Shown here: positions 540 through 49,053 of the stretch, in pieces
Position numbering within the stretch: position 1 is the first letter of the stretch
Layout: each line of letters starts with the position of its first letter
Virus record (IMG/VR): IMGVR_UViG_2721755651_000007
Length of the DNA: 64,000 bases
DNA from: a virus
Lineage: Duplodnaviria > Heunggongvirae > Uroviricota > Caudoviricetes
Direction: 5' to 3' (one strand)
Position numbers and translations under genes: made by a program
The notes under the pieces: model-generated
Databases searched by the model: none
Seen by the model: only the letters and a program-made list of their open reading frames with translations
Told to the model about the DNA's origin: nothing

Positions 540-708
540 CGTGACGTTCCTTTGGGTGGGTGAGCCAACGCCCGGGAGCGATCTGCCCACAGAGAAAGTC
601 ACACTGACCACTCCGTAAGCTCACCCCCGAAAGGCTCTGTGGTTGGTATGCGCCGGGCGTGGCGCAGATACAAAAAAGGCCCGCCGAAGCGAGCCTGGAA
701 AATAAGTG

Positions 709-785
709 TGGCGCGTTGTAGTGGAGTCGAACCACTGACCGATTGCTTAGAAGGCAATTGCTCTGTCCGGCTGAGCTAACAACGC
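709..785 (-). tRNA. argO: tRNA-Arg (anticodon UCU)
   Basis: 77-nt cloverleaf on minus strand: 7-bp acceptor stem, anticodon loop CUUCUAA, T-loop TTCGACT, 3' CCA; near-identical second copy at 48781..48857. Confidence 0.9.
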
Positions 786-885
786 AGAATACCGATAATG
801 GACCGCCATCGGGGACCCGGCCCCGCACCAACAACCCTGTTATGGTGTCGTCTGCTCTTCCTGATAAGCTAATGGCGGTTTGTGA
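786..885 (-). other. degenerate tRNA-like remnant between the Ile and Arg tRNAs (argN-position)
   Basis: tRNA-like acceptor and D-arm (CCGCCAT-TA-GCTT..GAGC ... ATGGCGG-T-CCA) but no canonical anticodon or T arm. Confidence 0.3.
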
Positions 886-961
886 TGGTGGCCCTTGCTG
901 GATTTGAACCAGCGACCTGGCGATTATGAGTCGCTCGCTCTCACCACTGAGCTAAAGGGCC
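886..961 (-). tRNA. ileZ: tRNA-Ile2 (anticodon CAU, ileX-like; Met not excluded)
   Basis: 76-nt cloverleaf, anticodon loop CUCAUAA, T-loop TTCAAAT, 3' CCA; resembles E. coli ileX. Confidence 0.85.
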
Positions 962-989
962 GAGCCAAAAAATAATAATCAGATGAAAA

Positions 990-1703
990 TCAATAATCAA
1001 GCCCTTGCCTGGATACATATCTGTCTGGCGGGAAGCCATAATAGCGGTGAAATACAGAAATAAAGTAGGACCGGCTTGAATAACCACATTTTTCTGCTAC
1101 AGCCTGTCCATATCCATACCGGGAACATAACATATTTACAGCAACACGCATCCGCTCTTCCAGCAACAAGCGACTGAACATGCCCCCTTCATTTTTCAGT
1201 TTTGTCTTTAACAAACTCTCACTCATATGCAACTGTAGAGCAATCGCACCAAGCGTCCAGCTTGCTGATATATCTGTCTGAATTATCGCCCTGACTTTGG
1301 CACTTATGCTGGATAAACATCCACTTAAAAACAATGACATCCGTTCATCTGTTTCAAACAGAGACAGGCAGGCCATCATAAGAAACATATCCGTGACCTC
1401 TCCGGAAAATCCCTGGCTGGTAATTAAAGCCGCAGCCAACGCAGGATTGTTGGGTTCCAGCAACAGGTAAAGCGGAATGTCAGTCAGACGAGTCCTCGTC
1501 AGCTTATGCTGACTTTCCAGATATTGACTTACGACGGATTCGCTTATATCGACAATTTTAACTTTGCCATAATGCATAAGGAAAAGCTCCCTGATGCATT
1601 TGGTGGCCAGAACGACTGAGCCTGGCTTAAGTGACAACGTATCCTTTTCAAGAAAAATATTAATTGGGGAGCAAACCATGATAACTGAACAGACAACAGC
1701 CAT
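990..1703 (-). CDS. AraC-family transcriptional regulator
   Basis: ORF 990..1703; C-terminal AraC-type HTH region (..GYSSRSYFISVFHRYYGFPP..); occupies the Q-to-lysis cargo slot. Confidence 0.7.
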   Translation of the reverse strand: MAVVCSVIMVCSPINIFLEKDTLSLKPGSVVLATKCIRELFLMHYGKVKIVDISESVVSQYLESQHKLTRTRLTDIPLYLLLEPNNPALAAALITSQGFSGEVTDMFLMMACLSLFETDERMSLFLSGCLSSISAKVRAIIQTDISASWTLGAIALQLHMSESLLKTKLKNEGGMFSRLLLEERMRVAVNMLCSRYGYGQAVAEKCGYSSRSYFISVFHRYYGFPPDRYVSRQGLDY

Positions 1704-1838: not shown

Positions 1839-2036
1839 TCAGGACTGAATGCGTCTGTAACAACCGCACTGATAGTCTGCCAGACCCGCCATAACCAGCT
1901 GGGTCAGTATTAACTGGCAGCGTTCGCGTGAAAGGTAAGTATTCTGCGCAATCTCCCCGACTGTCGCCGGTTCGGTAACGCTTAATTCATTAAACACCAC
2001 TCTGGCGGTTTCTGTCATATCCTGCTGTTTTAGCAT
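1839..2036 (-). CDS. hypothetical first late-operon protein (65 aa from MLKQQ)
   Basis: ORF 1839..2159; conserved copy at 50263..50583; lies immediately downstream of tR'-like terminator. Confidence 0.4.
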   Translation of the reverse strand: MLKQQDMTETARVVFNELSVTEPATVGEIAQNTYLSRERCQLILTQLVMAGLADYQCGCYRRIQS

Positions 2037-2158
2037 GTCTTTTTCCCTTTTCCGGTTAACGTGACATACCAATAACTCTTGTCGAAAAAGCCAGCAAGTT
2101 GAAAGACCGGTATTAGCAACCACCAGCGCGTTTAACGCCCCGTGCCGTTTTTCAGTCA

Positions 2159-2186
2159 TAAAAAAACCCGCAAAAAGCGGGCTCTT
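2159..2186 (-). terminator. tR'-like intrinsic terminator downstream of Q (prophage A)
   Basis: minus-strand hairpin GCCCGCTTTTTGCGGGC followed by T7 run. Confidence 0.5.
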
Positions 2187-2260
2187 TCAAATGTCCATGT
2201 CTGCTATTCGCCTCGCGGTACAGCTTTGCGAAGCTTACCGGAATTGAAGCAGTTTTTACG

Positions 2261-2827
2261 TCAAAAAGCAATAACTTTTTTCTCTATACCAAAAGCCATA
2301 ACCATTGGTTTGTACAAAATAAATTCTGCCACCTTTAGCCAATGCTCAATGCGTCTTTCACAGGTTCTTAAACTCCATTCCGGATGTGCATCATTCAGCA
2401 ATTCAGCCATTTTGCGCTTAGTCATCCCCCGCCCCACATAACGCTGACTCAGAACATTGAGCAGCCCGGGATAACCTGCCAGTACTTCACCAATAACCCT
2501 ATCGATTATTAACGCCTCTGAATCGGTACAATGTGCCAGCCAGCTTTTTTGATTGCCGTTGATCATATCCCGCAAAAAAGCCTCAAGTTCAGGTTTGTCC
2601 AGACCCGCTTTTTTCATCCTCCGGAGCGCCTCGTTAATTGCCGTTTTTGTCAGCTTTTTAGAGGTCAGTAATTGGTTGAACATATTTCCCGTCTTACCGT
2701 CGCCAATATACGACCAACGCCCCCACATACGCAGTTTCCCCTGGATCCAGACACTTTCCAGCGTTTTCAGGCGTAAATGCTCACCGCTTTTGCCTGTAAT
2801 TTCCGGGTATATCATATTTATGCTCAC
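2261..2827 (-). CDS. Q-like late antiterminator (QuuD-type family)
   Basis: position between rusA and tR'; WGRW motif region resembles QuuD-type Q proteins; paralog at 50702..51244. Confidence 0.6.
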   Translation of the reverse strand: MSINMIYPEITGKSGEHLRLKTLESVWIQGKLRMWGRWSYIGDGKTGNMFNQLLTSKKLTKTAINEALRRMKKAGLDKPELEAFLRDMINGNQKSWLAHCTDSEALIIDRVIGEVLAGYPGLLNVLSQRYVGRGMTKRKMAELLNDAHPEWSLRTCERRIEHWLKVAEFILYKPMVMAFGIEKKVIAF

Positions 2828-5104: not shown

Positions 5105-5260
5105 TTACTTCTCAGATTCGTAGTCTACGAAGACAGCGACCTCCGTCTGACCGGTTCGGATTCGCACCTCGCAGAGGTCTTTCCTCGTTACCAGTGCCGT
5201 CACTATGACGGTTAAACAGATGACGATCAGGGCGATTAACATCGCCTTTTGCTGCTTCAT
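5105..5260 (-). CDS. hok: Hok/Gef-family type I toxin (51 aa)
   Basis: MKQQKAMLIALIVICLTVIVTALVTRKDLCEVRIRTGQTEVAVF closely resembles HokC/Gef; in-frame upstream extension in ORF 5105..5317 looks mok-like. Confidence 0.8.
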   Translation of the reverse strand: MKQQKAMLIALIVICLTVIVTALVTRKDLCEVRIRTGQTEVAVFVDYESEK

Positions 5261-5550
5261 AGCCTGCTTCTCCTTGCCTTTCGGCACGTAAGAGGCTAAC
5301 CTACATGTGTTCAGCATGGATTGAGCCTCAGATTAATGTTAAGCGTCTTGCAGGACGCGTAATGTTAACTGGGGCTTTTCTCTATCTGCCGTTGGTGTTC
5401 ATGCCCGAGGCAGATAGCCTCAAGCACCCGCAGCAATTCTACTTAACTATCCTTTTCCCGCAAACCGTTTTTATCCCCAGCGGCAAATCGAATACACCAC
5501 CAGCGCCACCGCCATCGCAATTCCTACCGTTGTGAATGCTTCAGGCCAGG

Positions 5551-7089: not shown

Positions 7090-7980
7090 TCAGGCTGCCA
7101 GATCATCGTTTCCGATGGAAGCATAATAAGCTTTTTCTGCTTCTGCCGGAGGAGTATGGCCCAGCCTTCCCAGCAATCGTCGATTGTTATACCAGTCCAC
7201 CCACGTTAGTGTGGCCAGTTCCACTTCTGCACGGTTTTTCCAGCTCTTACGGTGTATTACCTCCGCTTTGTAAAGACCATTGATGCTCTCAGCCATCGCG
7301 TTGTCATACGAGTCGCCTGTACTCCCTGTTGATGCCAGTAATCCGGCTTCTTTTAGTCGCTCCGTATAGGCCAGTGACACATACTGAGAGCCTTTATCGC
7401 TGTGATGGATGGTGCCAGACGGACGACGGGCCCACAACGCCTGCTCCAGCGCATCCAGCACGAATGTCGTTTCCATAGACGATGAGACCCGCCACCCCAC
7501 GATGTATCCGGCAAACACATCAATGATAAACGCCACATAGACGAAGCCCTGCCATGTGCTGACGTAAGTAAAATCAGCCACCCACAGCTGGTCAGGTCGT
7601 TCTGCCACGAACTGACGGTTTACGCGGTCGCCTGCGGCAACGGCTTTCCGGCTGATGGTCGTACGGACCTTTTTACCCCGGAGAACACCGGCAAGTCCCA
7701 TAACCGCCATGAGACGTGCCACTGTACATCTGGCCACCCTGATTCCTTCCCGTAACAACTGACGCCAGACTTTACGCACACCGTACACCTGATGATTTTC
7801 ATCGTATACGCGCTGTATCTCTCTCTTCAGCCAGTCGTCGTGCTGCGCACGGGCACTGCGTTTATCCGGATGATGTCGCTGTTGCTGACAATGGTAATAC
7901 GTTGACGGGGCAATATGCAGTTCGCTGCATACCGGTCCGACCCCGTACTGCTCACGCAGCTTATCCAGCAGTGGCATCAT
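7090..7980 (-). CDS. IS3-family transposase OrfB (integrase core)
   Basis: 296 aa; DDE region ..[10 protein letters not shown].. [10 protein letters not shown]. Confidence 0.9.
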
Positions 7981-8303
7981 TTTTTCCAGAGGCGGTCGAA
8001 CTCCGCCTTCGCAAAATAAGCGGAAGCCTGGCGAAGGATATCGTTACTGCGGCGCAGTTCACGATTTTCACGTTCCAGCTCTTTCAGACGCTGACGTTCA
8101 GCGCTGGTGAGCCCACCATCACCGCCCCCGGTATCCCGCTCATGCTGGCGAACCCAGACACGCAGAGTCTCCGGCGTACAGCCAATCTTTGGGGCAATGG
8201 AACAAATTGCCGCCCACTGTGAGTCATATTCATCCTGACTTTCCAGAACCATACGAATCGCCCGCTGACGGACTTCGGGGGAAAAACGAGTATTTTTAGT
8301 CAT
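7977..8303 (-). CDS. IS3-family transposase OrfA
   Basis: 108 aa HTH plus leucine-zipper protein overlapping orfB. Confidence 0.9.
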
Positions 8304-48257: not shown

Positions 48258-48780
48258 TATTCCTCCCCTTTCCGGGATTTTCCTCAACAGTTGCGGGCCA
48301 CGGTCCGGCCACAAGGAGAATCAAAAGAGGAGAACCGCAGCCCGCAAAACGAAAAAGGCCGCGCAGTTGCGCAGCCTTATAAACCCTGGTTAAAATCCAC
48401 ACGATAAAAATGACAATGCAAGTATCTCATGCTGTTGCCCGAACCCACTCGGGCTTTTTTTTGCATGTAAAAAGGCTCCTGCGATGAGAAGCCTGGATAT
48501 ATGCCTAATCTCTGTATACAGCATGATGCCGGGTGCCTCCCGGTGAATTCTGCAATGACCAGACAGAATCCGCAACTTGCCTATACAATACGCAACCAAA
48601 CATCTGTCATTATGCCCCGCCGCTCAGGGGGATTCATCATGCAGGATTTTTTTAACAAACGCTCAGCATGTCAGGCAACAGTCAACTGCCTGAATTGTGA
48701 GGCATTTAACATTTCACTGTCCGGTGTCTTTCCTGTAATAAAAAGCCCGCAAAAGAGAGTCAGGGCAGATAAGTGTGGTG

Positions 48781-48857
48781 TGGTGCGTTGTACTGGATTC
48801 GAACCAGTGACCGATTGCTTAGAAGGCAATTGCTCTGTCCGGCTGAGCTAACAACGC
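48781..48857 (-). tRNA. argO: tRNA-Arg (anticodon UCU)
   Basis: 77-nt cloverleaf, anticodon loop CUUCUAA, CCA end. Confidence 0.9.
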
Positions 48858-48937
48858 AGAATACCGATAATGGACCGCCACCGGGGACTCCGAATCTCGC
48901 ACAGGGTGACGTTCTTTCCTGATGAGCTAGTGGCGGT
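48858..48937 (-). other. degenerate tRNA-like remnant (argN-position)
   Basis: 7-bp acceptor-like helix and CCA but only about 67 nt and no canonical anticodon or T arm. Confidence 0.3.
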
Positions 48938-49013
48938 TGGTGGCCCTTGCTGGATTTGAACCAGCGACCTGGCGATTATGAGTCGCTCGCTCTCACCGCT
49001 GAGCTAAAGGGCC
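48938..49013 (-). tRNA. ileZ: tRNA-Ile2 (anticodon CAU, ileX-like)
   Basis: 76-nt cloverleaf, anticodon loop CUCAUAA, CCA end. Confidence 0.85.
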
Positions 49014-49053
49014 GATTGCTGAATAATAACGACGCATGATTAACTCCGCAATC

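Follow-up and report, generated by a model that had tools for sequence, protein, structure and literature searches.

Three tRNA genes, ileZ, argN and argO, form a cluster in Shiga toxin (Stx)-converting and other lambdoid phages, at the beginning of the late region; the Q-like antiterminator region precedes them, and the stx slot and lysis genes follow. Many phage records annotate all three genes (e.g. Stx2a_WGPS6), and the record of phage 2851 lists them as tRNA-Ile, tRNA-Arg ‘codon recognized: CGA’ and tRNA-Arg ‘AGA’. Three tRNA genes have been reported for Stx2a/c/d phages and two for Stx2e phages (PMC7366253). The record of phiP27 (AJ298298, Stx2e) annotates only ileZ and argO, with 101 nucleotides (nt) between them. 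A text search of the literature by the gene names ileZ, argN and argO returned no relevant paper. The cluster itself is already known from GenBank annotations, and it has already been described that Stx phage types differ in having three or two tRNA genes. Here we analyse two copies of this cluster, locus A and locus B, in a 64,000-nt stretch of the IMG/VR virus record IMGVR_UViG_2721755651_000007 (hereafter the window), and find that the middle element of each copy is a decayed argN, the gene for tRNA-Arg(UCG).

At each locus of the window, tRNA-Ile2(CAU), the middle element and tRNA-Arg(UCU) lie on one strand within about 270 nt. The clusters of Stx2a_WGPS6 (AP012539) and phage 2851 (FM180578) have the same gene order and strand and are 88–92% identical to those of the window over the whole cluster. 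The ileZ and argO genes are intact both in the annotated Stx-phage clusters and in the window. The middle gene, by contrast, is a 77-nt tRNA-Arg UCG in phages of the AP012539/FM180578 type (ARAGORN; Rfam 43 bits) and is broken in both window copies. Furthermore, unlike in Stx-converting phages, no stx genes follow the cluster at either window locus. The initial annotation had described a phage tRNA cluster, present in two prophages, whose middle member is degenerate and is flanked in both by Ile(CAU) and Arg(UCU) tRNAs. The tool results support this description, ARAGORN and Rfam agree on the flanking genes, and its coordinates are right; to these we add the strand, which had not been given and is minus throughout.

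Middle elements as decayed copies of argN

Locus A (266 nt) and locus B (241 nt) each match 289 phage records at 88–100% identity, and most of these records belong to Stx-converting phages. The interval between ileZ and argO measures 100 nt at locus A (786–885) and 80 nt at locus B (48858–48937). When applied to the intact middle gene of the annotated phages, ARAGORN reports the anticodon TCG. An eight-way alignment establishes base-by-base homology between argN and the two middle elements, all of which have the encoded CCA and the 5' acceptor strand CCGCCA(U/C) in common, together with the D arm, T-arm region and 3' acceptor strand; the 13-nt spacer before argO is shared as well. The earlier observation that acceptor and D-arm sequence is kept thus holds for both elements, in the alignment as well as in the covariance-model alignment. 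Indeed, R1, a covariance model of argN based on 34 distinct intact alleles, matches both elements end to end, with 51.3 bits (E=7.5e-11 in the 64-kb window) for the element of locus A and 49.9 bits (E=1.7e-10) for that of locus B, as against 97.5–109.3 bits for the intact argN alleles. The middle elements are therefore full-length homologues and decayed copies of argN, tRNA-Arg(UCG), and are referred to below as relic A and relic B.

General tRNA detection gives a different picture. Searches of 501 nt around each locus returned no match to the tRNA family RF00005 in either interval up to E=10, and ARAGORN at its default, 90% and 80% thresholds found no tRNA there. Calls obtained by ARAGORN at thresholds of 60–70% were dismissed, as they overlap the real tRNAs or have a 4-base ‘anticodon’, and matches of other Rfam families over the intervals (YrlA, mir-188, SMAD5-AS1) are at chance level, far under their gathering scores. 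We took the RF00005 gathering threshold of 29 bits as the criterion for a canonical tRNA, and the same relic allele types in the loci L002, L005, L077 and L082 likewise have no RF00005 match at this threshold. Hence the valid cloverleaf that the initial annotation had proposed as a refutation was not found by covariance search with the general tRNA model. Neither locus has an intact tRNA-Arg UCG as its middle gene, and neither relic has a 7-nt anticodon loop on a 5-base-pair (bp) stem together with a 7-nt T loop carrying T54-Psi55-C56. The silence of the general tRNA finders would also be expected if the intervals were unrelated spacers that look like tRNA by chance. However, such spacers would not match the argN family model over its full length with E about 1e-10, nor align base by base with intact phage argN alleles, and we regard this explanation as already refuted, its remaining probability being negligible.

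Lesions of the relics and allele diversity in the middle slot

Relic A still has its acceptor helix (8 bp), its D stem (4 bp; GCUU/GAGC) and a 3' CCA, and its T stem (5 bp; CGGGG/CCCCG) is perfect. Its anticodon arm is expanded, with the stem ACGAC/GUUGU and a loop of 11 nt instead of 7, and its T loop, CCGGGU, has 6 nt and lacks the T-Psi-C consensus. The initial annotation had reported that a canonical anticodon and a T arm are missing from the middle elements; the former is correct for both relics, whereas the latter does not hold for relic A, in which the T stem is perfect and only the loop is abnormal. Relic A belongs to the allele type of phiP27 and mEp460_ev081, which share its expanded anticodon arm and have ileZ–argO intervals of 100–101 nt, as in locus A. 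phiP27 keeps the canonical T loop UUCGAGU, whereas relic A has CCGGGU and, in addition, a C-to-U change in the D stem, and relic A is thus the further decayed of the two. The closest allele comes from the IMG/VR locus L077 (75 of 81 alignment columns identical), where the expanded anticodon arm of relic A is found together with a fully canonical T arm. Since the T arm of L077 and the T loop of phiP27 are both canonical, the lesion in the anticodon arm would have come first and that in the T loop later, which suggests a stepwise decay of the A type. We also considered relic A as an odd but real tRNA whose anticodon, AAC, would lie in the 7-nt loop AUAACAG at the end of an extended stem with a bulge. 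This reading was rejected because A-type alleles do not conserve the pairs of the extension (ACC vs ACG or GCG) and because the T loop is defective as well.

Relic B carries different lesions. The acceptor stem and CCA are kept and one D-stem pair is mismatched; the anticodon loop is deleted along with the 3' strand of the anticodon stem, 17 model positions being replaced by 5 nt, and the T arm has two mismatched pairs and an 8-nt loop with one extra base. The closest allele is not the UCG allele but the ‘tRNA-Lys(UUU)’ allele of PPompW prophages (61 identical positions, 3 mismatches and 14 gap columns). The gaps comprise deletions of 11 and 1 nt, a 1-nt insertion in the T loop of relic B and a D-arm base that PPompW lacks; relic B is thus without 12 nt that are present in PPompW, including the anticodon and the 3' anticodon stem strand. 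Relic B and the PPompW allele have in common the pair C7-G66, the D loop and the variable-loop sequence UGUG. Moreover, the middle element of locus B is identical to that of the Stx2c_PV98-693 type, with 99.2% identity over the whole cluster. The acceptor pair 7-66 is U-A in relic A and C-G in relic B. As had been noted initially, the two remnants differ, and the alignments attribute this to different lesions; the relics represent independent lesion types from different allele lineages, which implies that argN was lost at least twice.

The relic alleles are widespread. The cluster is present in 3,061 of 5,426 complete E. coli genomes, in up to 13 copies per genome and some 7,000 copies altogether, and the best match is at least 99% identical over the whole cluster in 567 complete-genome E. 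coli records for locus A and in 373 for locus B. Under these matches, the NCBI annotation pipeline (PGAP) annotates only tRNA-Ile and tRNA-Arg, and the relics are unannotated in every record inspected. For a broader survey, two pattern scans of IMG/VR yielded at least 172 loci; these, together with hand-picked records and the window, make up a set of 180 loci in which, among the matches listed, the middle slot holds at least 61 distinct intervals and at least 50 distinct tRNA bodies. Among these matches, the 77-nt UCG allele accepted by ARAGORN occupies at least 110 loci, the B type at least 32, the A type at least 15 and the UUU type of PPompW at least 14, with other decayed forms in the remaining loci, although such class frequencies are not representative. 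Within the 170 IMG/VR loci listed, the first 51 nt of ileZ have at least 10 alleles, one of them in 143 loci, and the middle slot has at least 60 alleles in nine length classes.

The scores against the general tRNA model form a gradient in the middle slot. The best alleles reach 55.9–58.4 bits with RF00005 and others, including that of phage 2851, 42.9–44.9 bits, while the A type, the B type, PPompW, m14, m19, m26 and L077 stay below 29 bits; the flanking tRNAs score 64.8–73.8 bits across related loci. Intermediate forms can be recognized as well. The ‘tRNA-Pro’ of TL-2011c (L182:24180-24256) is argN with a single C35-to-G change, giving the anticodon UGG. The PPompW allele (L004:379-454), annotated as tRNA-Lys, has the anticodon UUU, C33, a weakened D stem and a compensated anticodon stem (UCAAC/GUUGA vs UCAGC/GCUGG), and lies under the Rfam threshold. 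The T loops can be arranged in a series across alleles, UUCGAGU, UUCGGGU, CUCGGGU, CCCGGGU and CCGGGU. Together with L077, these alleles point to graded decay elsewhere in the same slot and support the pseudogene reading. A candidate for a fourth lineage, the L018 allele (m28), called ‘tRNA-Ser(UGA)’ by ARAGORN, was set aside, as it scores below 29 bits with the Rfam tRNA model; it is probably also decayed. Among the 34 ‘intact’ argN alleles there are no compensatory pair changes and 9–10 alleles already have a stem mismatch; covariation among them was discarded as evidence of constraint, since the sample is too young to be informative. Collectively, the allele diversity, the score gradient and the stem mismatches of the middle slot fit a relaxed constraint on argN.

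Fate of the relics

The reading that we favour, with a probability of about 0.85, is that the relics are non-decoding argN pseudogenes which sit between two selected tRNAs and are removed during precursor processing. They combine significant full-length homology to a functional tRNA family with disabling lesions in the decoding elements. In the proposed course of events, ileZ, the relic and argO would be transcribed as one precursor, starting most likely from the motif TTGnnn-17-TATTAT located 9–10 nt upstream of ileZ or possibly by read-through from the late promoter, and the precursor of locus A would end at the hairpin terminator past argO. The relic would then be cut out and degraded as a by-product of the maturation of ileZ and argO and, judging from its sequence alone, would be neither aminoacylated nor able to read codons. 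argN may be dispensable because the host already reads CGA; with selection relaxed it would decay, and its variants would be shuffled as the many prophage copies in a genome recombine.

Several observations weigh against this reading. The minimum-free-energy fold of relic A (-31.2 kcal/mol, z=-1.85) is a formal, albeit non-canonical, cloverleaf in which the acceptor and T stems are perfect. The acceptor stem (7–8 bp) is nearly intact in every relic allele, the B-type m17 having a mismatch at pair 7-66, and the CCA is encoded in all but two 77-nt decayed alleles, of which m46 ends in CTA and m28 has none. In the IMG/VR scans we found no locus from which the middle slot had been cleanly removed and no ileZ–argO gap of 31–60 nt, and a slot that is never lost in this way could hint at a residual role. 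The relic alleles are widespread and nearly invariant in the 567 and 373 records mentioned above, which recent spread explains equally well. Finally, the ‘non-functional’ status of the relics is itself deduced from sequence.

Part of these observations would be accounted for if the relic, although non-decoding, were kept as a handle for RNase P, an explanation that is compatible with the pseudogene reading and that we consider unlikely. In E. coli, RNase P cuts polycistronic tRNA precursors apart; if it still recognized the acceptor stem, T stem and encoded CCA of the relic, cleavage at the 5' end of the relic and in the 13-nt spacer would free ileZ at its 3' end and argO at its 5' end. The 7–8-bp acceptor stem is kept in nearly all of the at least 50 distinct middle alleles, including every relic of the A and B types bar the single-mismatch B variant, the few alleles with an altered CCA are m46, m28 and three otherwise intact ones that end in TCA, and the distance from the CCA of ileZ to the relic is 1 nt (B) or 7 nt (A). 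A minihelix-type substrate of RNase P would have its acceptor stem stacked on a T stem-loop and carry a 3' CCA. Of these parts, the acceptor stem (8 bp in relic A) and the CCA are present in both relics; the T stem of relic A (5 bp) is perfect, whereas relic B has a poor T arm, with two stem mismatches and the 8-nt loop. The lack of clean deletions points in the same direction, although the independent events are few and the missing deletions consequently carry little statistical weight. Moreover, the relics display no covariation, and changes within the A type break pairs, both in the anticodon-arm extension (ACC to ACG) and in the T stem, which has lost 1 nt in m56 and has a mismatch in phiP27. 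Close packing is not specific to relics either, since the ileZ-like tRNA of L183 is followed after 1 nt by a complete tRNA. L183, the only locus with a gap of 0–30 nt in the IMG/VR scans, holds a different tRNA array (1974-2491, minus strand) composed of Thr(UGU), an ileZ-like CAU tRNA, Arg(CCG) and Gly(UCC); its Arg(CCG) has the same first 15 nt as argO and a different anticodon arm, and starts 1 nt past the CCA of the ileZ-like tRNA.

Alternatively, the middle element could be a functional non-canonical tRNA-like RNA, that is, a tRNA with an odd anticodon arm, a small regulatory RNA or a decoy of nucleases that attack tRNAs, in which case the diversity of anticodon arms (UCG, UGG, UUU, expanded, deleted) would result from selection and not from decay. 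The cloverleaf fold of relic A, the concentration of anticodon-arm changes in an otherwise conserved body, the compensated anticodon stem of the PPompW UUU allele and the frequency of relic alleles in pathogenic E. coli speak in its favour. However, the universal architecture of the T loop and anticodon loop is missing, as is any match to the general tRNA model up to E=10 in the 501-nt searches or to another Rfam family beyond chance level; the fold z-scores, that of relic A and -1.07 for relic B, are unremarkable; variation within the A type breaks the predicted pairs; and relic B is simply an anticodon-deleted allele. We hold this possibility to be very improbable. A related scenario, in which the slot evolves fast, its anticodon arm being remodelled again and again on a retained framework of acceptor stem, T stem and CCA, and in which the relics would function as an RNase P handle or as decoy or escape variants against anticodon nucleases of the host, is quite doubtful as well, if a little less so. 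The relics can be compared with the tRNA pseudogenes of E. coli cryptic prophages. These are likewise phage-borne tRNA gene fragments that fail tRNA detection, and those of K-12 prophages are duplicates of attachment sites left by integration. Unlike the K-12 examples, the relics described here lie inside a phage tRNA operon and would have decayed in place.

Cluster organization, prophage context and implications

The coordinates of the cluster features are collected in Table 1. In the 64-kb window ARAGORN identifies four tRNA genes, two with the anticodon CAU and two Arg(TCT), all on the minus strand. The CAU tRNA is named Met by ARAGORN, which relies on the anticodon, but tRNA-Ile by PGAP (for locus A, the PGAP call is taken from an identical genome) and ileZ in phage records.

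Table 1. Features of the two tRNA clusters in the window (positions refer to the 64,000-nt stretch)
Feature	Locus	Position	Strand	Basis
Promoter-like site upstream of ileZ	A	972..1000	-	TTGATT (1000..995), 17-nt spacer, TATTAT (977..972)
ileZ, tRNA-Ile2 (anticodon CAU)	A	886..961	-	ARAGORN; Rfam RF00005 72.5 bits
Spacer TCACAAA after ileZ	A	879..885	-	Sequence
Relic A of argN (tRNA-Arg UCG)	A	799..878	-	argN covariance model R1, fold, alignment
13-nt spacer TTATCGGTATTCT, relic A to argO	A	786..798	-	Sequence, alignment
argO, tRNA-Arg (anticodon UCU)	A	709..785	-	ARAGORN; Rfam 67.3 bits; argO in phage records
Intrinsic-terminator-like hairpin (8 bp, 6 G-C pairs) and T run, directly after argO	A	677..696	-	Consensus scan
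Promoter-like site upstream of ileZ	B	49023..49051	-	TTGCGG (49051..49046), 17-nt spacer, TATTAT (49028..49023)
ileZ, tRNA-Ile2 (anticodon CAU)	B	48938..49013	-	ARAGORN; Rfam 70.9 bits; PGAP tRNA-Ile
Relic B of argN	B	48871..48936	-	argN covariance model R1, pairwise alignment
13-nt spacer TTATCGGTATTCT, relic B to argO	B	48858..48870	-	Sequence, alignment
argO, tRNA-Arg (anticodon UCU)	B	48781..48857	-	ARAGORN; Rfam 71.4 bits; alignment

The flanking ileZ and argO remain canonical. The two ileZ copies differ, as the initial annotation had it, by one D-loop base, which we assign to tRNA position 16 and which reads T at locus A (window position 946) and C at locus B (48998) on the minus strand. 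In the alignment of the two argO copies, a T-stem pair is compensated, G-C vs C-G (CAGUGG/CCACUA vs CACUGG/CCAGUA), which fits continued selection on argO; one T-loop base (C vs A) and the discriminator base (G vs A) differ as well. Both argO alleles of the window recur among the IMG/VR loci. In six IMG/VR loci, argO breaks off directly past the anticodon loop, where unrelated sequence (…CTTCTAAGCAGCTGTGGTTGCACTCC…) takes over; this looks like a recombination or insertion junction within argO.

The promoter-like site of locus A lies 10 nt before the 5' end of the tRNA and has 9 of 12 consensus matches in a consensus scan. That of locus B, 9 nt before the tRNA, falls under the scan threshold and was read from the sequence. 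Among the IMG/VR matches listed, 161 of 172 loci have TTGnnn-17-TATTAT ending 9–10 nt before ileZ; they represent at least 29 distinct upstream 50-mers and several unrelated upstream contexts. The conservation of the motif despite differing upstream genes suggests a promoter belonging to the tRNA unit itself, followed by a very short leader; transcription is predicted to start near 965 at locus A and near 49016 at locus B. In locus A, promoter, ileZ, relic, argO and terminator may accordingly form a self-contained unit, with read-through from the late promoter being probable too. The terminator of locus A resembles the 3' end of the STnc100 model (weak match, 666-770), the body of STnc100 being missing there. 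At locus B, a full-length homologue of the small RNA (sRNA) STnc100 is found about 110 nt downstream of argO (48463-48671, minus strand, 175 bits); it is adjoined on the opposite strand by a match to the anti-GcvB sRNA AgvB (48402-48461, plus strand), which at 56.6 bits is just at the threshold. STnc100, often with AgvB or AsxR beside it, follows the tRNA cluster in many of the IMG/VR loci listed.

The first 25 kb of the window are identical to several E. coli O157:H7 genomes, the annotation of which places two tandem lambdoid prophages in this region. According to the identical O157:H7 genome, the genes 5' of the cluster at both loci encode DUF968, RusA, DUF1133 (Q-like), a small open reading frame and one further gene product, a helix-turn-helix protein at locus A and a DNA methyltransferase at locus B. 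Downstream of the cluster, both loci have further genes followed by holin, YdfR and lysozyme, so that, within its lambdoid prophage, each cluster is preceded by the late antiterminator region and followed by the lysis cassette. Other RNA elements detected in the window are one sok antitoxin RNA per prophage (5255-5429 and 53640-53789, minus strand; both of the hok/sok type, with hokD annotated for the prophage B copy), the DicF sRNA (13952-14003, plus strand) and the ALIL frameshift pseudoknot of an IS3-family element, IS1203 (7906-8022, minus strand). At the prophage junction (window about 16000–20500), the matching O157:H7 genome has a truncated integrase, a partial RecE gene, NleG effector genes and an IS256 transposase gene split by an insertion of ISEc8 (IS66 family). 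Because of these broken genes, the prophage with locus A looks defective at its left end.

Overall, the relics are a case of ordinary gene decay in a known cluster and have little importance beyond annotation. They explain the unannotated gaps of 80–100 nt between tRNA-Ile and tRNA-Arg in hundreds of genomes of E. coli O157 and other Stx-producing E. coli, as well as the two instead of three tRNA genes reported for Stx2e-type and several non-Stx prophages. As markers, these alleles could be of use in tracing recombination among prophages. If it is true that the relic is needed for the processing of its neighbours, it would provide a small example of a pseudogene kept for its RNA shape. With ileZ (AUA) and argO (AGA) intact and argN (CGA) decaying or changing in several ways, the cluster is consistent with selection on the decoding of AUA and AGA, and not of CGA, codons.

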